A stretch of DNA of 64,000 nt from an uncultured delta proteobacterium (GTDB lineage: Bacteria; Myxococcota; Myxococcia; Myxococcales; Myxococcaceae), in the NCBI GenBank assembly GCA_963776345.1, contig CAVZMH010000002.1, forward strand, positions 1 to 64,000, read 5' to 3'. Made by a program: the position numbers and the translations under genes. Shown here piece by piece: positions 1-31,811 of this stretch. Under the pieces are notes generated by a model. That model made no database searches. It was not told where the DNA came from and worked only from the letters and a program-made list of their open reading frames with translations. Numbering within the stretch: the stretch's first letter is position 1; every line of letters starts with the position of its first letter.

Positions 1-28
1 CCATGTCGTTGAATCGGACGACGGGCCC

Positions 29-1832: not shown

Positions 1833-2048
1833 GGCAGCGTGGCGGTCGGGCGTGACGTCGGCATTGCGTCGGAATGCTGGGCTAGCTGCCTGCTGCGGGC
1901 GGCTTTCTGAGCGTCCGTGACGTCTTCAAGACCTGTGCGCCCAACGGCATGTCAGACGACTCGGCAGGTGTCAGCCTCAAGCTCGGTGGATCTGTGGACG
2001 GAGGTGTTCGAATTGCAGCTACTCCGAGCTGTGCGAAACTGACAAGCG

Positions 2049-3378
2049 GTGCCCGTGGCAGAAGGGGCGTCTGACCACGGTGAGTGGTCGCAGGCATTGC
2101 TGACCGAAGGGAGCGGAGTGGGCGTTCTGCGGTTCTTCAAAGCACGAAAGCCGAATCCCGAAGAGACAACCCCGACGTCTGAGCTGCCTAAGGCCGCGGC
2201 GGGGCGCCATAGCGAAGAGTCCGTAGCTCCAGCGCGAGCAGCCGGTGCCAGCGCGGAGTCTACTTCAAGCACCGACTACAACCATCGACTAGCCACGGCT
2301 GAGCATGGCGGGCTTCGTACTCGGTCTGGAAGTGTCTATGACCAGCGAGACGAGCATCTTCACTACATTTACGCCAAGCCGCACTACGCGCAGAACCAGC
2401 AGATCCTTGGCTGGTGGACCGACGCACATGACGGACTGCTAGCTCGGCAGATCGCCAAGTGGCAGTGGTGCTGGCCCTACGACATTCGCACGGAGGTCGA
2501 GAAGATAACGCCGAAGGACGTGCTAGAGAGTTGGAAGAAGTCGGACTCAAGGTGCAAGCAACACGCCTGGTACAACGTCCTCATGTACTTCTGCGTTGCG
2601 CGAGCCGACGAGCTGCTGCTCACTGATGCCATCCGTGAGCCTCATGAGAAGAACTGCCTCGTGTGCGGCGAGCTCTTCCTGGAGGATTCGGTGCCATTTC
2701 CCTCTGGTGAAGCGCTTTGGCATTGACCATGTCGACTTCTGCGCGCCATGCGTCTCGAGTGCTCATCTCTTTCCGGGGCAAGGCAACAACGAGATGGCCG
2801 CCGAGGAGATACTTGAGTATCTTCGTGGCCTATCGGGTCTCCTCGGCGCGGTCCCTCCCCAGACCGCAGCCGACAATCTCGAGATTCTGGCGATTGCTGA
2901 GCCTGGTCGGCGGGTCGAGCTTCTTGAGCTGCTCAGGGAGTCGCCGAGCTCCGCAAGGGTCAAGTCCGTCTTTGGGACTTGGTTCGAAGCGCTACTCGCC
3001 GCTGGCTTGCTGGAGGACGGCACCCGACGGAATGCTCGCGGCATTCAGACCCTCGCCCGTGACGGCCATATGTGCTTCTCGCTCGGCGAGAAGACGATTG
3101 ACGACTGGCTATACGAAAACGGCATTCCCCACGAGAGGGAGCCCGCATACCCGGAGGGCAACTACCGTGCAGACTGGCTGGTCGGAGACGTATTCGTCGA
3201 GTACTTCGGCCTGACGGGAGACGCCGCATACGATGCGAAGGCCGAGGAGAAGAAGCGCATCTGCAAGCGACACAACGTCAAGCTGGTGGCGATCTTCCCG
3301 AAGGATCTTGCCAGTTGGTCGGCGCGAGGCCGGAAGCTGGAAGGGCTGCTCACGTATCGGGAGACGGAGTCGCGGTAG
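2049..3378 (+). pseudogene. Homing-endonuclease-associated-repeat + PD-(D/E)XK nuclease-like protein, frameshifted near 2700
   Basis: ORF 2049..2726 ends after CLVC and ORF 2596..3378 supplies the partner CAPC. It then has SSARVKSVFGTWFEALLAAGL (HNH-associated repeat-like) and SLGEKTIDDWLYENGIPHEREPAYP..YRADWLVGDVFVEYFG (PD-(D/E)XK-like). Confidence 0.55.
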
Positions 3379-4007
3379 CTCGCCCAGCGGCCGCCCAGCC
3401 AAAGAGCCTCTGGCCGCACCAACATCACCTCTCTTGGCCGCCGACTCCTTTGTCTCGGACAGCGCTTCTGAACCCGGTGCTTCGCCGAGCGCGCTCCTTG
3501 GCCCGTTCTCATGCGAGCGGCTACTCCCACTTGGCCCACGACCCACGTCACCCGGTTCCGCCTCGGTCGGCAGCGCTCCCACGCGGCGAACCCGCGAGAG
3601 GGGTTGACACGCCGCGGCATGGAGCAAGGGCGACGTTACCGAGACCCGCTGCATCGGCGTCGGCTGACCCCGGAGCTGTTCAAGGGCCGGCGGGCGCCGC
3701 ATGTGCTGAATGACACGCCCGTCGGTGCATTGGCGGCAGACGCTAGGACCACGCTGCACCTTGCGTGGTCTTCGGCGTCGCGCAGGTCTCCAAGACCTCC
3801 AGCGCCTCGACGATAGAGGATCTGCGCCGTGGTGCTTTTCTGTGACACCTCCTTAGCCGCGGCGACCTTTGTCCTCAAGGGCGATCTGCTATTGACCGAT
3901 GCTCGCTGATGGCAAGGTCGCCACGATTCCGAGAGAGAACCCGGGGCCTTGTCCCGGCGACCAGCCCGATGTTCGATTGACTCGCGAAGCGTCTGGAGGG
4001 GGCGACT

Positions 4008-4625
4008 TTGGCTGACTCATTCGCTCCTCCGTGCCTCGAAGAGAAGCTAACCCACATCGTTGTGGAGTGCGTCGCGGTGATGGACGACTCCGGAGTCTGC
4101 GTGGGCAAAGCGAAGATCGCTGACATTCTTCGCGGCAAGCCGTCTCGCTTTGTCTTGGAGAACGGCTACGACGTGAACCCGGCATTCGGACGCCTCAAGT
4201 TCATGCGCTCCCCCGACATTCGGTTCGTGATTGACGGACTGGTGGAGGATCGGCTGCTGGAGATCGCGTTCGTTGACGACAACCGCGAGCGGCCGGTGCT
4301 CAGAGTCGCGCCCAGTGGACGGCTGGAGTTGGCTGGCCGCAACCCGCATCGGGCACGGCTCCCCTGGAATATGGATCAGAGGGATTGCCCGGATACGACC
4401 AGGAGCTCCTTCGCGACCTCTGCGAGCTCAGACGGCGGTGGCCTCGAGGAGGGACTCAGGCCGTACCAGATCGCCTACGATTCCACGCTGTTCGCGACGG
4501 CTACAGCCCAGCCGCAGTCGATCGAAGAGCTGGAGGCCGTTCCCGGGTGGGGGCCTGTGAAGTGCGAACGCTACGGCGAGGCTTTCCTGGCGCTACTTCG
4601 CTCGTCGCGCAGTCGCCCAGAGTGA
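4008..4625 (+). pseudogene. RQC + HRDC domain protein (RecQ C-terminus-like, no helicase core), two compensating frameshifts at about 4380 and 4440
   Basis: GKAKIADILRG..FGRL..I..L...RPVLRV is RQC-like and PYQIAYDSTL..PQSIEELEAVPGWGPVKCERYGEAFL is HRDC-like. The first HRDC helix (YDQELLRDLCELRRR) is in another frame (ORF 4385). Confidence 0.6.
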
Positions 4626-4727
4626 ATGAGAGAGAGGCATTGCCGCGACCACGGCGGCATAGGGCTCGGATGGCGCCGTCACATCGTGCAAGCCTGCGTT
4701 GTGGCGGACCAATGACTAGGGGGGCGT

Positions 4728-5410
4728 GTGTCGAGACTACTGACGCAAGAGCAAGCGGCAAGGGCGATCTACTTCGACTTCGAGGGGTGCGTCGGAGAGG
4801 CACCGTCGTTGCTGGGCTGGTCATTCGAGCTCGACGACGGCGCTGAGCAGTTCTCTCAGTGGATCGTCGAGGGCGCCCTGCAAAGCGCCGCGCGGACGGT
4901 GCCGCACACCGGCGGCGCGGTGAGATGCGGACAGTGCACGTTGGACCAGGCGGTCGACTACTTGGTCACCTTCGCCGAGGGCTACGACCGACAGATCGTC
5001 TCCTGGGCGCGCTTCGACCTGAACCAGATCGAGAGCCACGTGGATGACCCCGCGCTGTTCGAGCGTGCGCAGGCGCGATTCATGAATGCCCTGCCGACCG
5101 CGAGGAAGTGGCAGCGGGACTCTATCCCGAGGAGGTTCTCGAGAGGACCTGGGGTGGGAAGCACAAGCTCGCCGCGTACTGCGAGCTCATGGATATCCAC
5201 GTGCCGGAGAAGTACGGACAGAACGTCGCGGCCAGGGGCATCAAGGCGATGCGCGAAGCCATTGAAGAGTACGGCAGCTACTCGGCGATTCCGGCCGAGG
5301 GCAAAGCGGCGAAGGAAGCCTGGAAGGCAGTCCTCGGTCACAACCGGCTCGACTGCAAGAACGCCCGAGAAGTGGTGACCCGCGCCGCCAGCGAGTGCTC
5401 GGCGACCTAG
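4728..5410 (+). pseudogene. RNase H-fold (DEDD-like) nuclease-like protein, frameshifted near 5115
   Basis: The AIYFDFEG motif is in ORF 4728. The C-terminal part (KHKLAAYCELM...VLGHNRLDC) is in ORF 5108..5410. Confidence 0.4.
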
Positions 5411-5680
5411 CCGAGAACCGCTAGGTCGCTCGTCATCGGATTCGGCCGCAAAGGCACACGCCGTCTGTCAGGTCGGGATTCTTTAGGAACGCAAGCCAGC
5501 GAGCCGATACAATCCGCAAGAGGGAGAGACGGGGTACGGGGGCGGCACACAGTGAGCGGCGTCGAGGGGAACAGGACTTGGGATCGCGCGTCGTGCGATG
5601 AGGCGGCGCAGCGGGCGAAGAGCCACGATCCCGGGGAGCGCTGGGCGGCGGTCTTGGCGCTCCGCGACATTGGCCGGCCC

Positions 5681-6115
5681 AGCGTGTTCGCCATTCACGT
5701 CCCGCCGCTGCGCGAGCGGGCGGAGGACGTCCTCCCACTGGCGGAGCAGCTGCTCTCGGAGCTGGGGCAGGAGCTGGGGCGCAAGGGGTTCCGGCTGGGC
5801 GAGCAGGCACGAGCCCGGCTCCAGAACTACCCCTTCCCGGGGAACGTGCGCGAGCTGCGGAACGTGCTCGAGCGGGCGCTGGTGCTGGAGCCGGGGCCGG
5901 AGCTGACGCTCTCGGTGCTCCAGACGCTGCGCGAGCCGGTGGAGGGCTCGGCGCCGGCGGGCAGCTTCGTGGTGACCGGGGACCCGCGGCCGCTGGAGGA
6001 GATCGAGAAGCGGTACGTCCGGCACGTCCTCGGCCAGCTCGGCGGGCGGCGGGTGGAGGCGGCGAAGGTGCTGGGGCTCAGCTACCCGACGTTCCTCAAG
6101 CGGCTCGAGGACTGA
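5681..6115 (+). pseudogene. C-terminal fragment of a sigma54-dependent (NtrC-family) activator
   Basis: SVFAIHVPPLRERAEDV..YPFPGNVRELRNVLERA..AAKVLGLSYPTFLKRL (AAA+ lid and Fis HTH). No Walker A, GAFTGA or Walker B motif is present upstream. Confidence 0.8.
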
Positions 6116-6128
6116 GCGGGCGCCCGGG

Positions 6129-9100
6129 TCAGTGCCCGGAACGCCGCCGCCGCAGCGAGAGCGCGAGCGCGGCCAGCACGAACGGCGCGAGCCCGGCGAC
6201 CGGAGCACCAGGCACCCCGCACCCGGCAGCGCCGGACCGCGTCGTCGTCGGCACGGAGAGCGCGCTGCTCCTCGTGGCGACGGCACGGGCGCTCGGGTCG
6301 CCCAGGAGATGGAAGGTCGCCCGGACGTCCGGGTCGGTGACGGCCTGCTTGGCGGCGAGGGTCGCGTCGCCCAGCGTCTTGCCGTCGTCGAGCGCGGCCG
6401 AGAGGAGCGCCCTGCTCAGCGTGGCGTGCTCGGTGGGCAGGGTCAGCGCCGAGGAGGCCCAAACGCCCCAGGCCCCGCCCTCGGGCGTGCGCAGCAGCGC
6501 CGCACCCAGGCTCTCTCTGCCGATGTCGATGAAGTAGGCGTTCAGGCAGGTCGCTGCGACGACGAGCGAGGCGCGGCCGGTGCCCGCGAGGGCATCCACG
6601 TCGGCCGTGGAGAGCATGCGCCCGTTCCAGAAATCCTCCGCCCCGTGCCCTTGGTAGTCGACGGCGATGGGTCCGGCGCGCAGCGCGTCGATCAGCGCGG
6701 CGTGGGTGACGGCATCGTCCATGCCCCGGACGAGCGCCTGCGTCGTCCAGCCGCTCAGCGCCGAGCGGACCTCGGCGGTCGCCGCCGAGAACTGGATGTT
6801 CCCGTCGCGGTCGCTGACCAGGAGAAGCCCGTCGTCGTGGCCCGGGAGGCGCCGTCCGAGGATCTTCGCCACCACCGCGTCCATCCGCTCCGGGGTCGAC
6901 ACGGGGAGGCGGCCGATGGCGACGCCGGGAAGGTCGACCAGGGCATCGTCGGAGGCGGTCTCGAGGTAGTGGGTCGGGACGAGGATGGTCGGCACCTGGT
7001 CGAGCTCCGGGTGGCCGAGCCAGCCGCGGGGGTCGTAGGTGGCCGCGCCGGCCAGCAGGACGAAGTGGGGCGTCGTGGACCAGCTGCGGACGGCGGCGGT
7101 GAGGAAGCTGCGGAGGGCCGTGGCGTCCTTCTCCCCGGCGGAGAACTCGTCGTAGACGTCCTCGATGTCGACCAGGGCCACGGTGAGCCCCTCGCGGGTG
7201 CGCTGGTCGGCCAGCGCGCGCAGGCTGGGGAGCAGCGCGCCGGTCCCGACGATGACTAGGTCAGCCCCTTGGGCCGAGTGCCAGCTGCTCGGGGCATTGG
7301 CGACGACGGTGGGCGCGAGCACGTCCTGGTCGCGGTAGGCGTAGAGGATGCGGGTCCCGCTCCCCGCGGCGGTCAGGCTCGCGCCACCGGGCGAGGCGGC
7401 GGTGACCACCGCGGCGGGGCTCAGGGCGCTGGTGATGTCGAGGACGTGCGCCCCCGGGGCGTCGGCGCCGGTCAGCTCGAGCTGTGCCCCGGCCGGGGCG
7501 GTGAAGCGGAGCGGTCCACCGAACGCGTACTGGCGGGGGTAGGTGAGTCGCTGCGAGAGCTCGAGGGCGATCTCGCTCGAGGTGCGCCCTACCAGCGACA
7601 CCGTGTTGTCCCCCGGGAGGAGCGTGCCGGGTGGAAGCGTGAAGCGCGCCGTGGCGACGTCCTGGTAGCTGCCCTCGACGGTGCCCACCCCGACGCCGTT
7701 GACCAGGACGTCCAGCGTGTGTGCGCCGGCGGTGAGACCCTGGATGCTCACCTCGAGCGTCGCGGCCTCCGGGGAGAGGAGGTCGAACGCCGGCGTGGAG
7801 AAGATGCGGTCCATCGGCTTGGTGCCGATAATCGGTGGACCGAAGAAGCCGTCCGTGTCGGGGTTGAAGAGCGCGGAGACGTGGAGCGTCCGGTCACGGA
7901 CCTCGAGCGTCTCTAGAAAGCTCGTGGCCGAGCTGGTGGCGTCCATGGCCGGTGCCGAGTGGATGAGGCTCGCGGCGCCGAGACCGTGCGTCACCCAGTA
8001 CGCCCGCGTGTCGGTGTAGCGGGTGTCGGCCGCCTGGCCGAAGAACTCGAGCGCGTCTCCGGGCTGTAGAGTGTTCCCTTCCGCCGAGAGCGCACGGAAG
8101 GCGATGGCACGGCCACCCGCCCAGAGCGCGAGCGAGGTGAGCGGCGTGCCCACCGGAAGCCCGGCCGCGAAGAGCTGGTCCGCAGGCACCCGGTACACCC
8201 CATCCTGCCGGACGAGGAGCTTGACCGCCCCGCTGCTGGCGGCGATCTCCCACTGCCGGACGAGGGTGGGGTCGCGCCACGCGCGGTCGAGCCCCGGGGG
8301 ATCTGCTGGATGGCCGGCGGAACCACCCTGGGCGACGAGGAGCGGGCTCGATCCGAGGGTGGCGACCAGCGCGGAGGACCGGAGACCCGAAAACGTGCCA
8401 CCGCGGGTCTGGACCGGACCGAACCACTGGCTCTGGCCCTTCAGGTCGATGGCCTCGATCCAGTAGCGCGCGCCGCTGCGCCGGCCCGGGTCGACGTAGG
8501 AGTAGTTCCGGCCGGCGACCGGGTCGAACCCGGCCCGGAGCGCCGAGCCGGCGATGAGGTCGCTCACCTCACGGCGCTGGCCGTTCTCCTCCCGGTAGAC
8601 GCGGTACCCCAGGTTCCGGATCTCCGTTCCGGCCTCCCAGGAGACCTCGGTGGCGCCGCCGCCGCTCACGGCGTCGAGCTTCACCAGCTCGACTGCGGTG
8701 GCGGGGGGGCCGACCTTGAGAAGCACGCTGCCGGCGCTCACTTGGTAGTCGTAGGAGAAGCCGGCGGGAGCGGTGCCCAGCGTCAGGGCGCTGTTGGTGA
8801 TGGCACCGGTGGCCGTGAACAGGGTGTACGTTCCCTGAGCAAACCCGGGACCGGCAGTGATGTTGAGGACGCCATTGAGCGTCAGTGCTCCGGTCACGGC
8901 ACCGCGGGTCGTGCTCGTCCCGACCGTGAAGTTCAGGACGGCGGTGTTGTTGAGATTGAGCGCGTTGGTGCTCAGGGTCCCGGTGCCGCCGGAGCCCGGG
9001 GTGTAGGAGGCGCCGGCGGCGACCGTGATCGACGCTGGGAGCGCGCCAGACCCGGAGAGCGTTCCTCCGTTGACCGCGACGGCAGCCTCCGTCGTCCCCG

Positions 9101-9686
9101 CCGCGTAGGTTCCGCGGAAGCTCAGCTGACCGGCGTTGATGGTGAACCCGCCGGTGTGCGTGCTCCCGGTTCCGGAGAAGGTGACATCGCCGGTGCCCGT
9201 CTTGGTCAACCGCCCGCCGAAGGCCATGGGCCGGGCGACCGTGTTCCCTGTCGAGCTGACCAGCCACGTTTGGTTGGCGCTGATCCGGAGCGTCCCGCCG
9301 GCGCCTCCGAAGCTGAACGTTCCATCCGCATTGACGCCATTGGTGATCCGGAAGTTGCCCGTCCCGGCGACACCGCTGATGGTCAGATTCACCCCAGCGA
9401 GTACGTAGATGGCACCAACGTTGGTGTTCCCGTTGGGGAGCACCGGCGTGGGATTCCCCGTGGTGAAGCACGCGTTGGCGAGGAAGCCCGGGGCTCCGGC
9501 GGGATTCCAGTTCGCGCCGCTGTTCCAGGCGCCGTTGACCGGCCCGATCCAAGTCTTCGCCCCACCGGGACACGTGACCTGCGCCGCCGCCGGAACGCCG
9601 GCGAGCAAGAGCACCAAAAGGCCGAGCCGCCTGAGCGTCGACGCGCTCGCGTTACGACTCCCGATCGCCAGCAGCACGTGGGTCAT
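6129..9686 (-). CDS. C25 (gingipain-family) cysteine peptidase with N-terminal autotransporter-like beta-strand passenger and C-terminal MYXO-CTERM-like anchor (copy B)
   Basis: Signal peptide and LTKTGTG repeat. C25 motifs: VDIEDVYDEFSAG, FVLLAG..YDP, IGRLPV, YQGHG (His), ATCLNAYF (Cys), FHLLGDP. Tail GCG..LAPFVLAALALSLRRRR. Its ATG overlaps the upstream stop (ATGA). Confidence 0.85.
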   Translation of the reverse strand: MTHVLLAIGSRNASASTLRRLGLLVLLLAGVPAAAQVTCPGGAKTWIGPVNGAWNSGANWNPAGAPGFLANACFTTGNPTPVLPNGNTNVGAIYVLAGVNLTISGVAGTGNFRITNGVNADGTFSFGGAGGTLRISANQTWLVSSTGNTVARPMAFGGRLTKTGTGDVTFSGTGSTHTGGFTINAGQLSFRGTYAAGTTEAAVAVNGGTLSGSGALPASITVAAGASYTPGSGGTGTLSTNALNLNNTAVLNFTVGTSTTRGAVTGALTLNGVLNITAGPGFAQGTYTLFTATGAITNSALTLGTAPAGFSYDYQVSAGSVLLKVGPPATAVELVKLDAVSGGGATEVSWEAGTEIRNLGYRVYREENGQRREVSDLIAGSALRAGFDPVAGRNYSYVDPGRRSGARYWIEAIDLKGQSQWFGPVQTRGGTFSGLRSSALVATLGSSPLLVAQGGSAGHPADPPGLDRAWRDPTLVRQWEIAASSGAVKLLVRQDGVYRVPADQLFAAGLPVGTPLTSLALWAGGRAIAFRALSAEGNTLQPGDALEFFGQAADTRYTDTRAYWVTHGLGAASLIHSAPAMDATSSATSFLETLEVRDRTLHVSALFNPDTDGFFGPPIIGTKPMDRIFSTPAFDLLSPEAATLEVSIQGLTAGAHTLDVLVNGVGVGTVEGSYQDVATARFTLPPGTLLPGDNTVSLVGRTSSEIALELSQRLTYPRQYAFGGPLRFTAPAGAQLELTGADAPGAHVLDITSALSPAAVVTAASPGGASLTAAGSGTRILYAYRDQDVLAPTVVANAPSSWHSAQGADLVIVGTGALLPSLRALADQRTREGLTVALVDIEDVYDEFSAGEKDATALRSFLTAAVRSWSTTPHFVLLAGAATYDPRGWLGHPELDQVPTILVPTHYLETASDDALVDLPGVAIGRLPVSTPERMDAVVAKILGRRLPGHDDGLLLVSDRDGNIQFSAATAEVRSALSGWTTQALVRGMDDAVTHAALIDALRAGPIAVDYQGHGAEDFWNGRMLSTADVDALAGTGRASLVVAATCLNAYFIDIGRESLGAALLRTPEGGAWGVWASSALTLPTEHATLSRALLSAALDDGKTLGDATLAAKQAVTDPDVRATFHLLGDPSARAVATRSSALSVPTTTRSGAAGCGVPGAPVAGLAPFVLAALALSLRRRRSGH

Positions 9687-10150
9687 CCGCAGGTCCCGCC
9701 GTTCTCGTTGCAGCTGCCCGCGCAGCACGGGTTCGTGGGCGAGCAGGCTGTGCCAGTTGGCAGCCCCACCGTGCAGGCCGACGCTGCCTCTGCGGCCCGC
9801 GGGACGGTGATCGCCAGGATCAGCGGGATCGCCACCAGGCCGGCACGGACCAGCCTCCTCCGCGACAGGTCGACGCCTCGCGGCAGGTCAACTGGGACGG
9901 CGTCCAGAAGCCCCGCTTCGCCCATCTCGCGAAGCGTTCCGTTCACCAGCTCCGCCTCGAGCGCCGCATGGCGCGCGATCGCCCTGACGTCACGCGTGCC
10001 GTCGATCGCTTCCCACACCCGCGCCGCCGCCGCGTTCAGACAGAACGCCCGGTGCGTCGCCTCGACGTAGAGCAGCGTCTCGCCGTCGAGCTCTTCGGAG
10101 ATGAGCCCATTCGCCCGGCGCCGGGGGACGAAGCCGCTGGAGTGAGCCAC
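9683..10150 (-). CDS. PqqD/RRE-domain protein fused to twin-Arg-like leader and Cys6 core peptide (copy B, 155 aa)
   Basis: EELDGETLLY..AFCLNAAAARVWEAIDG is RRE/PqqD-like. It is followed by SRRRLVRAGLVAIPLILAITVPRAAEAAS and the core ACTVGLPTGTACSPTNPCCAGSCNENGGTCG. The GTG start gives the same length as the paralog. Confidence 0.85.
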   Translation of the reverse strand: MAHSSGFVPRRRANGLISEELDGETLLYVEATHRAFCLNAAAARVWEAIDGTRDVRAIARHAALEAELVNGTLREMGEAGLLDAVPVDLPRGVDLSRRRLVRAGLVAIPLILAITVPRAAEAASACTVGLPTGTACSPTNPCCAGSCNENGGTCG

Positions 10151-10156
10151 ACCGAG

Positions 10157-10162
10157 AGGATA
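10157..10162 (-). promoter_or_regulatory. Putative -10 box (TGGTATCCT) 6 nt before the GTG start: leaderless promoter candidate
   Basis: TATCCT-ctcggt-GTG with no obvious Shine-Dalgarno; the same geometry occurs at the paralog. Confidence 0.4.
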
Positions 10163-10262
10163 CCACCGCTCTCCCACCCGTCCGCTTCTGCGACCAGCGC
10201 GGCAAGGGAGCGCCCCGCTCTGCCGATGTGGGAGAGCAGCGCGGGGCCGCTCACTCGGTAGG

Positions 10263-13200
10263 TCAGCTCGGTCGGGACCGTCGCGCGGCAAACGCCAGAA
10301 CGACGAGAACGATCGGGGCGAGCGCGGCAGCCGGTTCACCCGTGCTCCCGCATCCGGAAGCGCCGGACCGGGGCCGGGTCGGAACGGACAGCGCGCTGCT
10401 CCGGGCGAGGGTGGCCCGCGCACTCGGGTCGCCGAGCAGGTGGAACGTGGCGCGAACGTCCGGGTCGGTCACGGTCCGCTTCGCCTTGAGCGTGGCCTCT
10501 CCGAGCGTCAGCCCGTCGTTCAGCACCGCGGAGAGCAGCGTCTTGCTCAGCAGCGGGTGCTCGATGGGAATCGTCGGGGCGGAGGACGCCCAAACTCCCC
10601 AGGCGCCACCGTTCGAGGTGCGGAGCAGCGCGGAGCCCAGGCTCTCGCGCCCGATGTCGATGAAGTAGGCGTTCAGGCAGGTCGCGGCAACGAAGAGCGC
10701 GCTCTTGCCGGTGCCGGCAAGCGCATCGGCGTCTGTCGTGGCGAGGATCCGGCCTCCCGTCCAGAAGTCCTCCGCACCGTGCCCCTGGTAGTCGACGGCG
10801 ACGGGGCCGCCGCGGAGCGCGTCGAGGAGCGCCGCGTGGGTGGCCGCGTCGAGGGCCTTCTGTTCCGGGTCGGTGCCCGTCCCACGGGCAATCTCCTGGA
10901 TCGTCCAGCCCGAGAGGGCGGCCTGCACCTCGGCAGAGGCCGCGGAGAAGGAGCTGATGCCGTCATGGTCGTGGACCATGAGCAGCGCATCGCTCGGCAC
11001 CGCGAGCCGGCGGCCCACGATCTTCGCCACTGCCGTGTCCATCTCGGCAGCGGTGGGCATCGGGAGCCGGCCGACCGCCAGGGCCGGCTCGGTCGCGCCG
11101 TCGAAGGTGACCAGCGCGTCGTCCGATGCCGTCAACGTCTCGAACTGGGGCGTCTGCGCCCAGATGAACATCGTCGGGACCTGATCGAGCTCGGGGTGCC
11201 CGAGCCAGCCACGGGGGTCGTAGGTCGCGGCGCCCGCAAGCAGCACGAACTGCGGTGCGGTGGACCAGTTCTGTGCGGCGTTCGCGAGGAAGGCACGGAT
11301 CGCCGTCGCGTCCTTCAGCCCCGCCGAGAACTCGTCGTAGACGTCCGCGATGTCGACGAGCGCGACCCGGAGACCCTCGCGGGTCCGCGCATCGGCGAGC
11401 GGTTGGAGGCTGGGGAGGAGCGTCCTGGGGCCGATGATGACCAGGTCCGCGCCGGGCGCGCTGTGCCAGCTGCTCGGGGTGTTGGCCACGACCGCAGGCG
11501 CGAGCACGTCCTGATCGCGGTAGGCGTAGAGGATCCGCGAGCCGCTCCCCGGGGCAGTGAGGGTTGCGGCGGAGGCGCCGGCGGTGGTCGGCACAGTCGA
11601 TGGCCTGACCACACTGGTAACGTCGAGCACGTGCGCGCCCGCGGCAAGCGTGCCCAGGAGCTGTACCAGCGCTCCGCCGGGAGCAGTGAACCGCAGCGGT
11701 CCGCTCATCGAATAATGGCGTGGATAGGTGAGCCGCTGCGAGAGCTCGACCGCGATCTCAGTCCCGGCGCGGCCAACGAGCGTGACGGTGTTGTCTCCAG
11801 CGAGCAGCGCCCCCGCCGGAAGGGTGAAGGTCGCCTTCGCAACGTCCTGGAAGACGCTCTGCACCGTTCCGACGGTCGTGCCGTTCACCTTGACGTCCAC
11901 GGCATGCGCCCCGTTGGTGAGGCCCTGGAGGCTGATCTCGAGGAGGGCAGGCTCCGCCGAGGTCAGATCGATGGCAGGGGTGGAGAAGGTCCGGTCCATC
12001 GGCTGGGTGAAGATGATGAACTTACCGAAGAACCCGCCTGTCTCCGGATTCTTGAGAGCGGGGATGTGCAGCGTCCGATCGCGGATCTCGAGCGTCTCGA
12101 GGAAGCTGGTGGCGGTCGAGCTCGGCTGGGCCGCCGGGGCGACATCGATGAACGTCGGCGTGCCCAGCCCGGCGGAAACCCAGTAAACGCGGGTGTCGGT
12201 GTAGCGGGTGTCGGCTGCCTGGCCGAAGAACTCGATCGCGTCACCGGGCTGCAGGGTGGTGCCGTTCGCGGAGAGAACGCGGAAGGCGACCTGCCGCCCG
12301 CCGGCCCAGAGCTGGATGGAGGACAGGGGCGTTCCCACCTGCAGCCCCGCGGCGAAGAGGGCGTCGGCGCCGACGTGGTACACCCCATCCTGACGGACGA
12401 GGAGCTTCACCGCGGAACTCGCGGCAACGACCCACTGCGACGCGAGGTTCCGGTCGTTCCACGACCGGCTGTAACCGGGAGGATCCACCGGAGTCCCCAT
12501 CGGCCCACGATCGGCCTGCAGCAAGTTCGCACCGAGGTTGGCCACGAGCGTCGCGTCCTGGATCTGCTTCCCGGAGAGCGTGCCCGAGCGAGACTGGACC
12601 GGGCCGAACCACTGGCTCTGGCCCTTCATGTCGATCGCCTCGAGCCAGTACTGCGCACCCGCGTACCCGTTGGCGTCGGTGAAGGCGTAGTTCCGGCCAG
12701 CGAGCAGGTCGCTCCCAGCGCGAAGAGCCGATCCGGCAATCAGGCCCGGGTTGATCTGCACGCGCCGTCCGCCCTCGTCGCGGTACACGCGGAACCCCAG
12801 GTTCCGGATCTCCGTTCCGGCCTCCCAGCTGATCCGGGTCACGCCCCGGCTAGTGACCGCGTCGAAGCCCGCGAGCTCCACCGCTGTCGCCCCGGGACCG
12901 ACCTTGAGCAGGACCTGCGAGGCGGTCACCTGGTAGTCGTACGAGAAGCCCGCCGGGAGGGTCCCGGTGCGCAGGGCGTTGTTCGTCACCGCCCCGGAGA
13001 AGTTGAACAGCGTGAAGGTGCCCTGACCGAAGCCGGTGCCCGCAGTGACGTCGAGCACGCCATCGAGCGTGAGGGCGCCGACGGTCGCGCTGGTCGACGT
13101 GGTGCCGAGGGTGAAGTTCAGGTTGGTGGTGTCCGCAAGGACAAGACCTCCGGTCGTCAGTGTCCCCGCGCCGCCCGACCCGGGCGTGAGGGTCGCGCCG

Positions 13201-14789
13201 GCGGCGACATTCGCACCGCCATTGACGGTGCCCGCTCCCTGAAGGAGGCCTCCCGCCGCAACGGAGACACCGGACGTGTTGAGCGTTCCGTCAACGGTCA
13301 GCGTGCCATTCGCTCCGATCGAGACCGCGCCTTCGCCTGTCAGAGTCCCGGTCACCGCGAGCGTTCCGCCGTTCGCGGCCATGGTGATGCCACCGGTGTG
13401 GGCTCCGCCGGTCGAGATCGTGAGCGTCCCTGCGCCGATCTTGGTCAGCGCGCCTGCGCCGGTGACTGCTCCGAGCGTGAGGTTGGTCCCCGTGTCGAGC
13501 GTCGTCGCCCCATTGAAGGTCGCAGTGCCGGTCAGGGTCTGAGGGGCGGTCCGAACCGCCCAGGTTCCACTGGTGAAGATGACGTTCGCCGGGAGCGAAC
13601 TGGAGTTGGTTTCCCAGGTCACCCCGTCCACGGTCAGGTCCACCGCGGGGAACGTGAACGCCGAGTTCAGCCGCACCGTGCCGGTCCCGTCGCCGCGGAA
13701 GAGCATCGGCAACGCTGTGTTGACCGAGGATCCGGCGCCCATGATGATCACGCCGCTCGCCCGCGGAGTCAGGACGAGGGTGCCCAGCGCACCCATGTCG
13801 AGCGTGCTGGTGTACGTCAGCGTGGCCCCGCTGTCCGCGCCAAGGATGGTTCCGGTTCCGGAGACCGATCCGTTGGAGATTGGCAAGCCGACGGTGTTGG
13901 TCTGCGCCACATGGAGGCCCTGGTCGAGCCCGGAGCCGCTCGGGTTCGTTCCAAGCGTTCTCAGGACCACCGTTCCAGCGCCCGACACCGGGCCGGCGAC
14001 CCAGAGCGCGGAGCCGGCGCTCGTCTTGGTGAGGGCGCCATTCAGAGTCAGCCCGCGAACGGTTACCACCGTTCCCGCAGCGCCGGTGAGGCCCCCGAGG
14101 GCGAGGTTGGTGCCCGCGTTGACGGTCAACGTCCCAAGCGTGTAGCGGTTGCCGCTCGTCTGACCGTTGATGGTTCCAGCGGCACCGTCAGCGACGACGG
14201 ACGTCGCGTAATCGGTGTTGTTGGGGGCGTTGAGATTGAGCGTTCCACTCGTGAGAGTGAACGCGCTCGACATCGCACCCGCGCTGTTCGCAAAGAGCGT
14301 CCCTCCGTTCCAGTCGATCGCGCTGAGCTGGGTATTGTCGCCCGAGAACGTGAAGGAGCCAGCGCCGGTCTTCGTGAGCGTGAATCCCGTGCCGACCAGG
14401 TTTCCGGCCATCGAATTCGCCCCACCTCCGATGCTCCAGGTCTGGCTGGCGGTCAGGATGATGGCCATCGTCGAGTCGAAGGTCAGGTTGCCGACGTTGC
14501 GGGTGAGTCCCCCCACGCCGATCCCGAGGACGCCACCGACGCTTGTGAAATTGGAGGTCGAGTTGACCGTCAACGAAAGCAGATCCCCGTCGATATCCAT
14601 GACGATCGTCGGGAGGCCGCTGAGCGTCACCAAGTCGCCCGGATTCGGAGGACCCGGAGGCGTCCAGTTGCTGGGGGTGCTCCAGTTGCTGTCCGTGGCC
14701 CCCGTCCACGTGAACGAACTCTGCGCCTGGGAGAACCCCCCAACCAGCAGGACCGTGACCAGCGCGGAACGAACGACGTGGCTTCTCAC
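10263..14789 (-). CDS. C25 (gingipain-family) cysteine peptidase with long beta-strand-repeat passenger and MYXO-CTERM-like anchor (copy A, ~1508 aa)
   Basis: The GTG start overlaps the NTase stop (GTGA). Signal peptide, LTKTGAG/LTKIGAGTL repeats, YQGHG and ATCLNAYF dyad, and tail GCGS..LAPIVLVVLAFAARRSR. Confidence 0.85.
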   Translation of the reverse strand: MRSHVVRSALVTVLLVGGFSQAQSSFTWTGATDSNWSTPSNWTPPGPPNPGDLVTLSGLPTIVMDIDGDLLSLTVNSTSNFTSVGGVLGIGVGGLTRNVGNLTFDSTMAIILTASQTWSIGGGANSMAGNLVGTGFTLTKTGAGSFTFSGDNTQLSAIDWNGGTLFANSAGAMSSAFTLTSGTLNLNAPNNTDYATSVVADGAAGTINGQTSGNRYTLGTLTVNAGTNLALGGLTGAAGTVVTVRGLTLNGALTKTSAGSALWVAGPVSGAGTVVLRTLGTNPSGSGLDQGLHVAQTNTVGLPISNGSVSGTGTILGADSGATLTYTSTLDMGALGTLVLTPRASGVIIMGAGSSVNTALPMLFRGDGTGTVRLNSAFTFPAVDLTVDGVTWETNSSSLPANVIFTSGTWAVRTAPQTLTGTATFNGATTLDTGTNLTLGAVTGAGALTKIGAGTLTISTGGAHTGGITMAANGGTLAVTGTLTGEGAVSIGANGTLTVDGTLNTSGVSVAAGGLLQGAGTVNGGANVAAGATLTPGSGGAGTLTTGGLVLADTTNLNFTLGTTSTSATVGALTLDGVLDVTAGTGFGQGTFTLFNFSGAVTNNALRTGTLPAGFSYDYQVTASQVLLKVGPGATAVELAGFDAVTSRGVTRISWEAGTEIRNLGFRVYRDEGGRRVQINPGLIAGSALRAGSDLLAGRNYAFTDANGYAGAQYWLEAIDMKGQSQWFGPVQSRSGTLSGKQIQDATLVANLGANLLQADRGPMGTPVDPPGYSRSWNDRNLASQWVVAASSAVKLLVRQDGVYHVGADALFAAGLQVGTPLSSIQLWAGGRQVAFRVLSANGTTLQPGDAIEFFGQAADTRYTDTRVYWVSAGLGTPTFIDVAPAAQPSSTATSFLETLEIRDRTLHIPALKNPETGGFFGKFIIFTQPMDRTFSTPAIDLTSAEPALLEISLQGLTNGAHAVDVKVNGTTVGTVQSVFQDVAKATFTLPAGALLAGDNTVTLVGRAGTEIAVELSQRLTYPRHYSMSGPLRFTAPGGALVQLLGTLAAGAHVLDVTSVVRPSTVPTTAGASAATLTAPGSGSRILYAYRDQDVLAPAVVANTPSSWHSAPGADLVIIGPRTLLPSLQPLADARTREGLRVALVDIADVYDEFSAGLKDATAIRAFLANAAQNWSTAPQFVLLAGAATYDPRGWLGHPELDQVPTMFIWAQTPQFETLTASDDALVTFDGATEPALAVGRLPMPTAAEMDTAVAKIVGRRLAVPSDALLMVHDHDGISSFSAASAEVQAALSGWTIQEIARGTGTDPEQKALDAATHAALLDALRGGPVAVDYQGHGAEDFWTGGRILATTDADALAGTGKSALFVAATCLNAYFIDIGRESLGSALLRTSNGGAWGVWASSAPTIPIEHPLLSKTLLSAVLNDGLTLGEATLKAKRTVTDPDVRATFHLLGDPSARATLARSSALSVPTRPRSGASGCGSTGEPAAALAPIVLVVLAFAARRSRPS

Positions 14790-15883
14790 GGCACAACCCC
14801 CTTGCCGACCGTCGCGAGCTGCGAGTCCAGGCCCACCCGCCAGCGAAGGTCTCGACGCGCGAAGTCCGCCGCACGGCGCAAGCACTCGGCCAGCTGCACG
14901 GCGACCCGTGGAACTGCGCGGAACGGCGCGCGTAGGTGGACGGTCGCGCTCACCGGATCCGGCCAGCGGTCGCGGAGCGCCCGGAGCGCGCCAGCCCAGC
15001 CCAGCTTTCTCAGCTCGTAGAGCGAGGGAGGCATGCTCTCGTACCCGTGAACCCAGCCGTGGAGAACCGCGCCGCGCAACCATCCGGGCACCGCCACCCT
15101 CGGTGTCCCCGTGGGAGGGCTTGCGCCGAGCAGTTCCTCTGCAAGCGCGACGGTCGCGAGCACGCCCTCGCTGAGGTGCGCGTCGCCAGCCAGGCATGTC
15201 TCCCAGGAGAAGTCCGGCGGGAGCGCCGCGAGCAGTACCGCGATGTCACAGAGCCACAGCGGTCGCCAGCCGCCATGGTGCAGCTGGTGGATGGCGACCA
15301 GCCGGAGGTGGTCCTCCCAGGACAGAACCCGAAACCTCGCCCGACCGAGTGACTCCGGGCGCGAACGCCCGAACAGCTCGGACTCGGTCCGATCCGGCAG
15401 ATAGCGGGCCAGCGTCTCGGGCGTGTCCACATCCGCGCGCGACTGGAGGTCCGAGCCAAGCGCGCGGAGGACGGCGCGGGCCCGCTCGGCCTCATCCACA
15501 CGAACGAGCAGGTCGAAGTCGCCGAACGGACGAAGCGCGCGGTGGGGGTAGAGCCGGGCGAGGCTCCACCCCTTGAAGAGGATGGGCTCGATCCCTGCCG
15601 CATTGAAATGAGCGAGGAGGTGGGGAAGGTCGCGTTCCTGTCTCGCCGCCGTGAGCGCGTGATGCTGGAAGGCAGCGCGGAGCGCCGCGAGCTCGGGAAC
15701 CGTTGCCAGCTCGGTCTCCCTGAGCCGCCACCAGGCGAGCCCACCGACACCCCCTGCGATCAGCCGCTCGATCCAACGCTGGAGGTCGACCTCCGGTCTC
15801 GCCACGGGCGGTGCGTCGGCTGCCCACGACCTCCAAAGCACGCCGGCGATGGCCAGCGCGAGCCGCTGCTCCGACTTCGTCAT
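14786..15883 (-). CDS. Nucleotidyltransferase family protein (NTP_transf_5-like)
   Basis: AGIEPILFKGWSLARLYP..LRPFGDFDLLV motif, plus EDHL..H..H and WLCD. Its ATG overlaps the upstream TGA. Confidence 0.85.
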   Translation of the reverse strand: MTKSEQRLALAIAGVLWRSWAADAPPVARPEVDLQRWIERLIAGGVGGLAWWRLRETELATVPELAALRAAFQHHALTAARQERDLPHLLAHFNAAGIEPILFKGWSLARLYPHRALRPFGDFDLLVRVDEAERARAVLRALGSDLQSRADVDTPETLARYLPDRTESELFGRSRPESLGRARFRVLSWEDHLRLVAIHQLHHGGWRPLWLCDIAVLLAALPPDFSWETCLAGDAHLSEGVLATVALAEELLGASPPTGTPRVAVPGWLRGAVLHGWVHGYESMPPSLYELRKLGWAGALRALRDRWPDPVSATVHLRAPFRAVPRVAVQLAECLRRAADFARRDLRWRVGLDSQLATVGKGVVP

Positions 15884-16347
15884 CCGCAAGTCCCGCCGTT
15901 CTCGTTGCAGCTGCCCGAGCAGCACGGCGTCGTGGGTGAACAGGCCGGCCCACCCGGCAGGCCCACCGTGCAGGCCGACGCCGCCTCCGCTGCCCGCGGG
16001 ACGGTGATCGCCAGGATCAGCGGGATCGCCACCAGGCCGGCACGAACCAGCCTGCGCCGCGACAGGTCGACGCCGGGCGACAGATCCTCCGGAACCGCCT
16101 CCAGCAGCCCCGCCTCGCCCATCTCGCGAAGCGTTCCGTTCACCAGCTCCGCCTCCAGCGCTGCATGGCGCGCGATCGCCGTGACGTCACGCGCGCCGTC
16201 GATCGACTCCCAGACGCGCGCTGCGGAAGGATTGAGGCAGAACGCCTTGTGCGTCGCCTCGACGTAGAGCAGGACTTCACCGTCGAGATGCTCGGTGACG
16301 AGCCCGCTCGGCTGGCGCCGCGGGACGAAGCCACTGGATGAGGCCAT
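15880..16347 (-). CDS. PqqD/RRE-domain protein fused to twin-Arg-like leader and Cys6 core peptide (copy A, 155 aa)
   Basis: Paralog of 9683..10150 with core ACTVGLPGGPACSPTTPCCSGSCNENGGTCG. Confidence 0.88.
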   Translation of the reverse strand: MASSSGFVPRRQPSGLVTEHLDGEVLLYVEATHKAFCLNPSAARVWESIDGARDVTAIARHAALEAELVNGTLREMGEAGLLEAVPEDLSPGVDLSRRRLVRAGLVAIPLILAITVPRAAEAASACTVGLPGGPACSPTTPCCSGSCNENGGTCG

Positions 16348-16353: not shown

Positions 16354-16359
16354 AGAGTA
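16354..16359 (-). promoter_or_regulatory. Putative -10 box (TACTCT) 6 nt before the ATG: leaderless promoter candidate
   Basis: TACTCT-cggcgc-ATG on the minus strand. Confidence 0.4.
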
Positions 16360-16653: not shown

Positions 16654-17952
16654 GTGCTTCTCTGCGCACCCTGGGTCCTGACCTCGCTTCTCGCCGCCAC
16701 CGCGGCGAGTCCGGAGTCACTCGACCTTTCCAGCTCCCCTTCAGACCTCGAGCTCGTCGCGGTGCTCTGGTCTCGTTCGCCGGACCTGGTCGCCGCCCGC
16801 GCGCGGCTCGGCCAGGCCGAGGCCGACGTCACCCGCTCCGAGGTCCTCCCCAATCCGGGCTTCGACTTCCAGTGGGGCACCCTCGCGCTCGGCCCCACCA
16901 ACCCGCCCGGCCTCGACAAGCTCGCCGACGTCCCCAACTACGCCTTCACCCTCAGCCAGCCGGTGGAGATCGGCAAGCGCGGACCCCGCAAGGCCGCCAG
17001 CCGCGCCAGCCGTGACGCCGCGGCGTTCGACGCGCTGGAGATGCTTCGCCAGCGCTGGTTCGACCTGCTGGAGCGCATCTCCGAGGTCGCCACCGCGGAG
17101 ATCCGCGTCGGGGCGCTCGACGAGACGGTGAGGGACGCGCAGCGCCTCGCTGATCTCCAGCTCGAGCGCCAGAAGCGCGGCGACATCGCCGGCCTCGACG
17201 TCGACCGGGCGGTGCTCGAGGCAGAGAAGTACGCCTCGAACCTCGGACAGGAGCGGGAGAGGCTCGCCACCGCGCTCCTCCTCTGCGCCCAGACCGTGGG
17301 CCTCCCCTGCCGCCCCTTCGGGAGCCCCGACGTGGCGCGCGCCTTCCTCGGCGCCCGGCTCGCCGCGAGCCCTCCGGCGCCGAACCTCGATCAGCGCCCC
17401 GACCTCCGCTCGCTCCAGGCGCAGGAGGCGGCCGCCCGGTCGAGCCTCACCCTCGCCGAGCGCCGCTGGATCCCCGACCCCACCTTCCGGCTGGGGTACG
17501 TGCTCGATCAGTTCGTCATCGCGGGCAACCAGCACCAGAGCCTGATGGTCGGGGTGAGCATCCCCCTGCCCTTCTTCGACCACGGCCAGGCCGACGCCAA
17601 GGCCGCAACGGCGATCGCCGAGGCCGCGGGCCAGGCGCGGCTCCTGCTCCAGGCGGCCAGCATCCGGGACCTCACCTCGCTCGAGCAACAGCGCATCAAC
17701 GCGCTCGCCCGACGCGCCCGGCTCCAGGACCGCACGCTGCCCCTCGCCCGCGACGTGGTGCAACGCCTGGAGAGCGCCGTGACCCGGGGCGGCGCACCGC
17801 TGCCGGACCTCCTGCTCGCGCGGCGGACGCTGGGAGACCTCCAGCTCGACGCCGCCGATCTGGATCTCTTCGCCTTCCACCTCACGGTGGCGCACGCCCG
17901 CGCCGCCGGGGAGCTGCCCCCCTTGCCGGAGAACGTTCCACATGTCCCTTGA
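16654..17952 (+). CDS. TolC/CzcC-family outer membrane efflux protein
   Basis: LPNP..SQPVEIGKRGPR, RPDLRSL, VGVSIPLPFFD; first gene of the RND triad. Confidence 0.85.
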   Translation: MLLCAPWVLTSLLAATAASPESLDLSSSPSDLELVAVLWSRSPDLVAARARLGQAEADVTRSEVLPNPGFDFQWGTLALGPTNPPGLDKLADVPNYAFTLSQPVEIGKRGPRKAASRASRDAAAFDALEMLRQRWFDLLERISEVATAEIRVGALDETVRDAQRLADLQLERQKRGDIAGLDVDRAVLEAEKYASNLGQERERLATALLLCAQTVGLPCRPFGSPDVARAFLGARLAASPPAPNLDQRPDLRSLQAQEAAARSSLTLAERRWIPDPTFRLGYVLDQFVIAGNQHQSLMVGVSIPLPFFDHGQADAKAATAIAEAAGQARLLLQAASIRDLTSLEQQRINALARRARLQDRTLPLARDVVQRLESAVTRGGAPLPDLLLARRTLGDLQLDAADLDLFAFHLTVAHARAAGELPPLPENVPHVP

Positions 17953-19120
17953 AGTCGGCTCCGCCATCCAGGGCTTCCGCCGGACCCGCCCCTCGCTGCT
18001 GGTGGGCGGCGGCGTCGCGCTGGTCGCTCTGATCTTCGCCAGCTGGCTCCTGCTCCGCACCCGCGAGACCGCCCCCGAGACCATCCATCGGCTCAGCGTG
18101 CAGGGGAACACCATCCACATTCCCGACCAGGCGCCGCAGTGGCGCTACGTGGAGCTCTCCGTCGCCAGCGAGGCCCCCCCGCTCCCGCCGCCACCGGTGC
18201 CCGGACGGGTGGGCTTCGACGAGAAGCGCACCGCCTCGCTCAGCGCCCCGCTCCCGGGCCGTGTGGAGCGGGTGCTGGTCCGGACCGGAGATCGGGTCCA
18301 GGAGGGCGACCGGATGTTCAACGTCCGCTCCGCTGCGTGGGCCGATCTGGAAAGGGAGATGGCGTCGGCCCGGGCCAACGTCGAGGTGAAGAAGCGCATC
18401 GCCGCGCGCACCCGCGAGCTGGTGGCCATCCGGGCAGCCCCGGAGAAGGACGCGCTCGCCGCGGAGGCGGACCTGCACGAGGCCGAGCTGGCCGCGCGCG
18501 CCTCGGCGGCCAAGCGGTCCTCGCTGCGCATCGCCCCCGAGGGAGACAACCTCTTCTGGGTCATCGCCCCGCGCTCCGGCACGGTGGTGGACCTGGACGT
18601 GGTGGCGAGCCAGGAGGTCCAGCCCTCGGGAGAACATCCGCTGGTGCGCATCTCCGAGCTGTCCGAGGTGCTGGTGCTGGCCGACGTCCAGGAGAGCGAC
18701 GCCTATGACCTCCACGTCGGCGGAGAGGTGACCATCCGCACCCGCGCGGGGAGCGTGACCCGGACGGGCACCATCGAGCGGATCTCCGAGGTGGTCGACC
18801 CGAAGCGGCGCACCGTCGAGCTGCGGATCCGCGCCGCCAACCAGGACCGCGCGCTCCGGCCCAACTCCTTCGTCGACGTCGAGCTCCAGTCCGACCCGTC
18901 GCAGAAGCGCATCCGCGTCCCCGCCGAGGCGGTGGTCACCGACGGCCAGAGCTCGGTGGTCTTCGTCTCTCGCGGCGAGGGGCAGCTGGAGCGAGTCGCC
19001 GTCACGCCCGGGCGACAGCGCGGCGGGGAGATCGAGCTGCGCTCCGGGCTGCAGCCCGGGAGCCGCTTCGTGAGCAAGGGTGCCATCCTGCTCTTGAACC
19101 AGCTCGAGCTGGAGCACTGA
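17942..19120 (+). CDS. RND efflux periplasmic adaptor (CzcB-like)
   Basis: N-terminal TM, PGRVERVLVRTGDRVQEG, APRSGTVV, VDPKRRTV, LRPNSFV. Confidence 0.9.
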   Translation: MSLEVGSAIQGFRRTRPSLLVGGGVALVALIFASWLLLRTRETAPETIHRLSVQGNTIHIPDQAPQWRYVELSVASEAPPLPPPPVPGRVGFDEKRTASLSAPLPGRVERVLVRTGDRVQEGDRMFNVRSAAWADLEREMASARANVEVKKRIAARTRELVAIRAAPEKDALAAEADLHEAELAARASAAKRSSLRIAPEGDNLFWVIAPRSGTVVDLDVVASQEVQPSGEHPLVRISELSEVLVLADVQESDAYDLHVGGEVTIRTRAGSVTRTGTIERISEVVDPKRRTVELRIRAANQDRALRPNSFVDVELQSDPSQKRIRVPAEAVVTDGQSSVVFVSRGEGQLERVAVTPGRQRGGEIELRSGLQPGSRFVSKGAILLLNQLELEH

Positions 19121-19122
19121 CC

Positions 19123-27330: not shown

Positions 27331-27461
27331 GTGTCGAAGCTCTTGTCGCTTGGAACACTTCACCCGTCCAATTCGGTGCCGAGCGGCCGAGCGGGACGCG
27401 CTACAGCTCCGTGCGGCAGGTGGTGAGAACTTGCGCGCGGGCTCCGGAGCGTGTTGTCCGG

Positions 27462-31757: not shown

Positions 31758-31811
31758 GAATGAACCTCCTGGCTCCTGGTGTCGAGGGGCACGCTCGACG
31801 GGCTGGGCGGC

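Follow-up and report, generated by a model that had tools for sequence, protein, structure and literature searches.

A conserved and apparently undescribed ribosomal peptide-like system with a leader-recognition domain fused to its predicted precursor core

RiPP recognition elements (RREs), the leader-binding domains of pathways for peptides that are made on ribosomes and modified post-translationally (RiPPs), are described as discrete proteins or as fusions to biosynthetic proteins (RRE-Finder, PMC7470986). In the tailoring of phospho- and phosphoglycosyl-lasso peptides (PadeK, BsfK/BsfB1, and PsmK/PsmN; PMC10368454, PMC6993621, and PMC9266682), an HprK-like kinase and an NTP transferase are reported beside a lasso-type RRE; BsfK phosphorylates Ser3 of the core, with a contribution of the RRE shown (PMC10368454), and PsmN is required for hexosylation of the phosphate (PMC6993621). 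The linear polyphosphorylated peptide (LPP) system of Bacillota (lppA-K-B-S-D-N), as described in PMC13381572, combines an RRE, an HprK-like kinase (LppK, which phosphorylates core Ser3), and an uncharacterized NTP transferase with no lasso cyclase; the same account names as open questions the function of LPPs and of paeninodins and the action of the NTP transferase. Here, we describe a locus of an uncultured delta proteobacterium (family Myxococcaceae) in which an RRE is fused to a leader and a predicted disulfide-rich core, and in which this precursor is accompanied by a nucleotidyltransferase, an HprK-like kinase, and PorU-like C25 proteins. The stretch analyzed, hereafter the window, comprises 64,000 nucleotides (nt) at the start of one contig (C2, GenBank accession no. 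CAVZMH010000002.1) of a 5.1-Mb genome that is 98% complete.

The locus consists of five minus-strand genes, all intact and in the same orientation, and a check of open reading frames (ORFs) and junctions bore out the coordinates and overlaps given in an initial annotation of the window. In gene order, these are precursor A (15880-16347), an NTP_transf_5 nucleotidyltransferase (14786-15883), C25 A (10263-14789), precursor B (9683-10150), and C25 B (6129-9686). Consecutive genes meet, in this order, at ATGA, at GTGA, across a 112-nt gap, and at ATGA, three of the four junctions being 4-nt start/stop overlaps. Both precursors have 155 amino acids (aa). In precursor A, the RRE spans approximately aa 7-85, a twin-arginine leader aa 96-122, and a six-Cys core aa 123-155; precursor B is 86% identical, with the six Cys invariant. 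The internal leader (15982-16062, minus strand) comprises S-R-R-R, a hydrophobic stretch with P109-x7-P117, and A-E-A, and is predicted to act both as an RRE-bound strand and as a signal for twin-arginine translocation (Tat) and signal peptidase I (SPase I). The predicted mature core (15883-15981, minus strand) has the knottin-type spacing C-C-CC-C-C, with Ser124 at core position 2. The calculated masses of the cores, oxidized and without modification, are 2952.09 Da (A, aa 123-155) and 2997.11 Da (B). The nucleotidyltransferase (365 aa) carries a DxD motif, matches PF14907 with an E value of 2e-32, and is PsmN/LppN-like by family. As first annotated, PqqD (both 155-aa genes), NTP_transf_5, and Peptidase_C25 (both proteases) all scored above their Pfam cutoffs in hidden Markov model searches. 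A second copy, consisting of a C25 fragment, a precursor, a nucleotidyltransferase, and a C25 gene, lies at the end of contig C12; with it, the five-gene locus accounts for every C25 match (four) and every NTP_transf_5 gene (two) in the genome, a clustering that far exceeds chance.

A word-indexed search found 84 close relatives, a close homologue being labeled Myxococcaceae. A profile search of 1.84 billion representatives returned 5,364 matches (E ≤ 0.001), a number that falls to 2,472 clusters when E is limited to 1e-10; the best 150 were inspected, and the lower-scoring matches will include some RRE-only proteins. Two arginines followed by P-x7-P were present in 234 of 244 family sequences. 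Position +5 after the second Pro is Ala in 91%, position +7 is Ser (53%), Thr (37%), or Asn (7%; 97% for the three together), and the predicted mature core begins with Ala in 62%. Of 234 members, 226 have an even, non-zero number of Cys residues, and the C-C-CC-C-C spacing opens the tail in 156 of 234, a count inflated by the use of six-Cys profiles to choose the 244 sequences; Cys-poor or very short tails also exist (L128, L130, L132, and L109). This spacing, along with sporadic weak Pfam matches, recalls inhibitor cystine knots of the conotoxin/spider type, which are defined by a 1-4, 2-5, 3-6 disulfide pattern, the feature observed here being the Cys spacing; the cores here are bacterial and follow an RRE and a twin-arginine leader. 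Apart from PqqD-type and sporadic Tat models, no dedicated Pfam or NCBIfam family was matched by any of 124 scanned members. Atlas searches with the whole precursor returned only hypothetical and PqqD clusters, the nearest of them from Myxococcota, those with the leader and core alone gave a best score of 0.77, which we regard as a lead only, and cluster look-up of 10 distant members yielded a single taxon label, Pseudomonadota.

The AlphaFold2 model of the precursor (pLDDT 85.8) and fold searches indicate an RRE of three strands and three helices, as in leader-binding RREs, and the domain scores above the PF05402 cutoff. Its fold is nearest to those of leader-bound lasso RREs (Foldseek E value 7e-4; VIA Z 9.1, root mean square deviation 1.7, 75 aa), with TbiB1 the closest. 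In this model, DSSP assigns a strand to residues 111-114, within the hydrophobic part of the leader, and F36 (beta3)-A113 is the top of 6,786 covariation pairs (mean-field analysis, 315 sequences); a His/Ser association at positions 36 and 113 persists in 50%-cluster representatives (54/16/21/28, p 2e-4). The twin arginines, hydrophobic region, and AxA of the putative export signal are conserved, but this signal lies inside the protein. The genome encodes TatC and a VKOR. Among the recurring annotated neighbors, no gene was recognized as a dedicated leader peptidase or ABC exporter, and a Pfam scan found neither an SpI peptidase nor an MsbA-like exporter in the window operon, the recurring annotated clusters, or 32 unassigned immediate neighbors, not all loci having been scanned in full; this is consistent with the use of Tat and SPase I.

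The accessory genes named at first included the nucleotidyltransferase and overlooked an HprK-like kinase, which lies at 24270-25217 (minus strand; start codon inferred from the sequence) and carries His, Walker A, and SDE motifs in an open frame with no selenocysteine stop. It is the sole match in the genome to a local profile built from the neighbors of distant homologues (E value 6e-66), and with TIGR04352 it scores 67.8 bits (E value 8e-19), below the cutoff of 200. The motifs are present in 41 of 43 kinase homologues, and the DxD motif in 58 of 61 nucleotidyltransferase homologues. Between the kinase and precursor A lie two other genes and a TolC/HlyD/AcrB-type resistance-nodulation-division efflux operon (16654-22314, plus strand), an insertion common to the related genomes G004 and G007 and not present in G003. 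Because the kinase abuts the precursor, directly upstream, in six related genomes (G003, G091, G153, G175, G190, and G196), the order kinase-precursor-nucleotidyltransferase is probably ancestral.

Gene neighborhoods were compared in two sets of loci. The first came from scanning GTDB with a narrower alignment: 475 stretches matched, and the best 78 loci were kept with at most 10 kb on each side; this set is biased and mostly from Blastocatellia. It contained the nucleotidyltransferase in 44 loci, C25 in 42 (by a C25-only profile), and the kinase in 32, together with Wzy-like proteins in 20, DUF4214 proteins in 18, WecA-like proteins in 15, Wzc in 12, and Wza in 11; for the 38 loci of at least 20 kb, the counts were 27 for C25, 27 for the nucleotidyltransferase, and 20 for the kinase. 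An even draw of 201 Acidobacteriota genomes included 16 with the fusion; the 20 loci fetched out of 27 matched, which represent 14 of these genomes, contained the kinase in 13, the nucleotidyltransferase in 12, WecA-like proteins in 8, and C25 in 4. Across 120 family genes, the immediate upstream neighbor was the kinase in 46 cases, C25 in 15, and a DUF4214 protein in 14, and the immediate downstream neighbor was the nucleotidyltransferase in 55 and C25 in 5. The linkage to nucleotidyltransferase, kinase, and C25 genes anticipated for other genomes was thus found, and the conserved core consists of kinase, precursor, and nucleotidyltransferase, often inside polysaccharide loci, with the HprK-like kinase as the most constant partner of the precursor.

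C25 is a frequent companion of this core. In the window's family, 10 other genomes have the fusion, and 7 of these have C25, compared with 4 of the 130 genomes that lack the fusion. Among 301 genomes of the window's phylum, 12 had the full-length fusion, and C25 occurred in 9 of these versus 48 of the 289 others; in the Acidobacteriota draw, it occurred in 11 of 16 versus 77 of 185, kin in both comparisons not being independent. We call C25 optional because only 4 of the 20 evenly drawn loci have it; it is also absent from G091, G175, and G196, and L020 and L022 have one precursor for two C25 genes. The proposal that each protease has a dedicated RRE peptide therefore did not hold, the one-to-one arrangement in the window being a local duplication. 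Large DUF4214 (S-layer-like) proteins flank the precursor in the 18 loci mentioned above (e.g., L049, L064, and L081), often where C25 is missing, and may be alternative surface partners. An operon recurring in Blastocatellia (L034, L036, L044, L050, and similar loci) encodes a WecA-like protein, a Wzy-like protein, a TPR protein, an unannotated 226-aa secreted protein, a TPR-CBM protein, in some cases the kinase, the precursor, the nucleotidyltransferase, and a passenger-less C25.

Compared with LPP as described in PMC13381572, the locus shares the RRE, the HprK-like kinase, the uncharacterized NTP transferase and the lack of a lasso cyclase, a phosphorylated Ser near the core N terminus (shown in LPP, predicted here), leader removal of the signal-peptidase type (likewise predicted here), and an association with polysaccharide loci. 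It differs in having the RRE fused to the precursor, where LPP has a discrete RRE and a separate precursor; in a leader of the form RR..P-x7-P..AxA instead of YxxPxVLxHQ; in that no counterpart of the dedicated SpI and MsbA-like exporter of LPP was found among its neighbors; and in its predicted disulfide-rich core and its phyla. C25 has no occurrence in the main text of PMC13381572. The kinase and NTP transferase are likewise shared with phospho-lasso tailoring, from which the locus differs by an RRE in cis and a core with no lasso ring. A lasso pathway was rejected: the B2 peptidase PF13471 had no match in the 98%-complete genome, in searches that detected the controls, and there is no macrolactam cyclase at the locus, Asn_synthase matches lying only on other contigs. 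A PQQ pathway was also rejected (PqqD equivalog scores of 19 bits versus 101 and 17 versus 46). HPr-rel-A (TIGR04352 kinase and TIGR04353 PqqD chaperone) has a related kinase and RRE, and 41 of 124 family members match TIGR04353 at E ≤ 0.01; however, TIGR04353 describes a stand-alone chaperone, the window precursors do not match it, and the kinase falls short of TIGR04352, as noted. Judged by sequence, the locus resembles LPP and the phospho-lasso tailoring module but belongs to neither. We found no description of the RRE-leader-core fusion or of its link to C25 in the literature, supplements and most subscription journals lying outside this search. The initial suggestion of a conserved, apparently undescribed RiPP-like system with a predicted exported, disulfide-rich core is therefore supported: homologues are not outright unlinked from the partner genes, and no characterized family matches the architecture outright.

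The C25 proteins, initially labeled gingipain-type, appear PorU-like from both sequence and structural model. Their best PDB sequence match is PorU (E value 1.5e-12), and a model of the 833-aa conserved part (pLDDT 88.4) aligns with PorU, the T9SS (type IX secretion system) sortase, over 808 columns (E value 1e-29, TM 0.48, root mean square deviation 10.2) and with gingipains over only about 360 to 390 (364 for RgpB); the gingipain label was rejected on this basis. They carry a PF01364 domain with a His-Cys dyad, which places them in peptidase family C25 (clan CD), and all 53 aligned C25s retain both catalytic residues, the His and the Cys. With NF033707 (PorU) they score 175.4 and 151.2 bits, below the cutoff of 420, and no SprA_N or Por_Secre_tail match was obtained in the genome, in searches in which the controls were silent as well. 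C25 A (1,508 aa) consists of a signal peptide, a Gly/Thr-rich passenger, a junction, a beta domain, a PorU-like core with H1337/C1371, and a MYXO-CTERM-like tail; C25 B (1,185 aa) has a signal peptide, a passenger with a PATR repeat, a junction, a PorU-like core with H1014/C1047, and a putative MYXO-CTERM tail, and the two are 65% identical across 1,068 aa. Unlike PorU, these C25s bring along a passenger of their own at the N terminus, those of myxobacteria also having a MYXO-CTERM-type tail, and several paralogues occur per genome.

A conserved beta domain lies upstream of the core in all 61 sufficiently long C25s. The motif P-[TSND]-x-[AVI] precedes it in 46 of 57 passenger-bearing (or contig-end-cut) C25s versus 0 of 11 passenger-less ones (background 7%), a count that did not include the two window proteins. 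Their junctions read A-T-A-V, at aa 634-637 of C25 A (12879-12890, minus strand), with predicted self-cleavage after Thr, and at aa 329-332 of C25 B (8691-8702, minus strand), a predicted self-cleavage site in a segment with a pLDDT below 50. PorU is reported to cut after Asp, Asn, or Thr at the consensus X/(GSA)(VLI), a site that the C25 junctions resemble, and to ligate its cargo to amines, including peptide N termini (PMC4560394), its natural acceptors being N-seryl or N-glycyl sugars (PMC7468200); by analogy with this cleavage and ligation, the C25s probably cleave themselves after Thr and then pass the passenger to a surface amine. The claim that the proteases are cell anchored stands in part. 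Candidate tails of the MYXO-CTERM kind are present here: C25 B scored 22.9 bits with TIGR03901 in one search (above the cutoff) and 15.9 in another (below it), and C25 A, with no match to the model, ends in a Gly-Cys-Gly, hydrophobic, Arg-rich tail. Elsewhere, among 54 C25s of the 78 GTDB loci, 50 extend no more than 4 residues past the catalytic domain; from these sequences, membrane anchoring appears lineage-specific, with a C-terminal anchor seen only in myxobacterial proteins.

We favor, with a probability of about 0.58, an LPP-like pathway in which a Tat-exported disulfide mini-protein is phosphorylated and then glycosylated, beside self-cleaving surface transpeptidases. The precursor RRE is predicted to grip its own leader; the HprK-like kinase would then phosphorylate a Ser/Thr near core position 2, by analogy with BsfK and LppK at Ser3, and the phosphate would be decorated with a sugar or nucleotide by the nucleotidyltransferase, by analogy with PsmN. 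Tat export and SPase I cleavage would free the 33-aa core, three disulfides would form, and the released mini-protein would probably be tied to cell-surface polysaccharide. The C25s would process themselves at the T-A-V junction and display adhesin-like passengers, being optional parts of this surface module.

Several points weigh against this pathway, whose scheme of phosphorylation, glycosylation, and export draws on sequence, models, and analogy. The kinase is 8 kb distant from the precursor in this genome and has D-E where lasso kinases have D-D; the Wzc, WecA, and Wza matches of the genome lie on contigs other than that of the locus; and the window C25 junctions lack the Pro of the counted motif. 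Asn occupies the presumed phospho-site in 15 family genes, 10 of them beside a kinase. The Tat motif of the leader lacks the usual Phe, only 13 of 124 members match TIGR01409, and a Tat signal that follows a folded domain of 90 aa has no known precedent. A tree-aware covariation test, with only 3 supported pairs and a median p of 1, did not retain the beta3-leader signal, and the pairing partner of strand 111-114 was deduced from DSSP instead of from coordinates; because the modeled strand and the covariation favor it and this test had so few supported pairs, we grade binding of the leader in cis as likely only. Finally, deletion of lppN is reported to have no effect in LPP (PMC13381572).

The peptide might instead be a linker: its modified form would supply the amine to which the PorU-like C25 transfers its passenger, and passengers would thereby be joined, via the mini-protein and a phospho-sugar, to surface polysaccharide. 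The acceptors of PorU (N-seryl/N-glycyl sugars, PMC7468200; peptide N termini, PMC4560394) agree with such a role, as do the small residue that starts most predicted cores, the excess of C25 in fusion genomes of the window's family, and the 15 family genes with C25 directly upstream. However, core position 2 is Ser/Thr and PorU prefers Val/Leu/Ile, most evenly drawn loci and three related genomes lack C25, and C25 is common in Acidobacteriota without the fusion. We regard the linker role as unlikely, and give the same weight to T9SS-independent protein anchoring in which the fused RRE would mask the Tat signal until phosphorylation and phosphoglycosylation, and the N terminus of the exported knottin would receive the adhesin passengers that the C25s cut off at their T-A-V junction, linking them to polysaccharide. 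Quite improbable, in our view, is that the protein is no exported RiPP but an uncleaved RRE adaptor anchored in the membrane, its hydrophobic stretch remaining a transmembrane helix with a periplasmic disulfide tag, and that the kinase and nucleotidyltransferase modify something else, for example a polysaccharide-pathway sugar or lipid: the frequent position of the precursor in polysaccharide loci, the Cys-poor or very short tails, and the Asn variants, which have no presumed acceptor, would fit, but AxA is conserved, two prolines interrupt the stretch, the model has a strand and no helix at 111-114, and no separate small precursor gene was noticed, no systematic search for one having been made.

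Two further possibilities concern the C25s and the peptide. Knottins are often protease inhibitors, and each window C25 has a precursor gene upstream, as would be expected if the core held its partner latent; relatives without one-to-one pairing, the many loci with no C25, and the kinase and nucleotidyltransferase, which it leaves unexplained, make this very improbable. Similarly improbable is a C25 acting as a leader peptidase or cyclase that cuts after the conserved Ser/Thr/Asn just ahead of the first Cys. That residue, at +7, does match the cleavage preference of PorU (PMC4560394), and all 15 Asn variants sit in C25 loci; however, there is an AxA site of the standard kind immediately upstream, these variants probably form a single clade, and C25 is missing from many loci.

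If the LPP-like pathway is correct, RiPP maturation would have a new design, in which RRE and substrate are one protein and the leader that the RRE binds also serves as the signal for export, and cystine-knot-like peptides of bacterial origin would form a large natural library in soil Myxococcota and Acidobacteriota. If the peptide were instead a linker, HprK/NTP_transf_5 peptide pathways would gain a biological role. The tie between junction motif and passenger yields the specific prediction that PorU-like C25s outside Bacteroidota process themselves, and because the compact locus needs no RRE in trans, the question of the function of such peptides and of the action of the NTP transferase is directly testable.

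Upstream of precursor A, a TAnnnT box (16354-16359, minus strand), likely a -10 element of a leaderless transcript, lies 6 nt ahead of the start codon, and a TG-n-TAnnnT box (10157-10162, minus strand) lies 6 nt ahead of that of precursor B. Where a start could be called in myxococcal precursor genes, such a box is present in 13 of 14 (another 9, with no callable start, being left out) against a background of 6 in 3,182, and it is rare elsewhere (2 of 88 non-myxococcal precursor genes with a callable start). This sequence pattern suggests that each window precursor has its own leaderless transcript.

Several family members have unusual surroundings. Directly 3' of Asn-variant precursors, a 490-aa multi-pass membrane protein with no Pfam or NCBIfam match is encoded in L028 (3224-4693), L029 (10647-12116), and L032 (10634-12097); we presume a likeness to GT-C glycosyltransferases from a motif and treat it as a candidate only. 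A Cys-rich 400-aa protein with no family match lies between precursor and nucleotidyltransferase in L031 (15718-16893) and L040 (10636-11844). The precursor gene of G190 is broken by a transposase-like ORF (L106, 11081-13105), and G007 has a third precursor directly after a C25 gene (L013, 12877-15609), with no kinase or nucleotidyltransferase match in the fetched stretch of 20 kb.

The possibility that the five genes are an assembly artefact was rejected because G004 has the identical five-gene order (frameshifted there) and G005 repeats the C25-precursor-C25 part. Independent soil contigs span the C25 A/precursor B and precursor B/C25 B junctions; one low-depth contig fuses precursor B to precursor A via a common 41-nt stretch and represents either a repeat collapse or a deletion variant. 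Next to C25 B, a sigma-54 response regulator gene is represented only by its 3' end (5552-6115, plus strand), which is 88% identical to an intact copy on contig C12. The similarity breaks off at 5674, where independent contigs run on into intact-type sequence, and in G004 and G005 an intact regulator gene adjoins C25; the break is therefore either an island insertion or the joining of two pieces by assembly. Positions 1-5400 have a lower GC content (~63%) and ORFs mostly without annotation, and include a PADLOC match to PDC-S69 (2596-3378, E value 4.5e-12) and an ORF with RQC and HRDC domains (4008-4625), making a defense island possible. Beyond the kinase, a biotin-type gene run (~27460-32070, minus strand) contains what we take to be bioB, bioF, bioA, and bioD. 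Among the genes listed as absent from the window was a radical SAM gene; one is present at 31170-31589, within this run and apparently unrelated to the locus, split over two frames perhaps by a sequencing frameshift.

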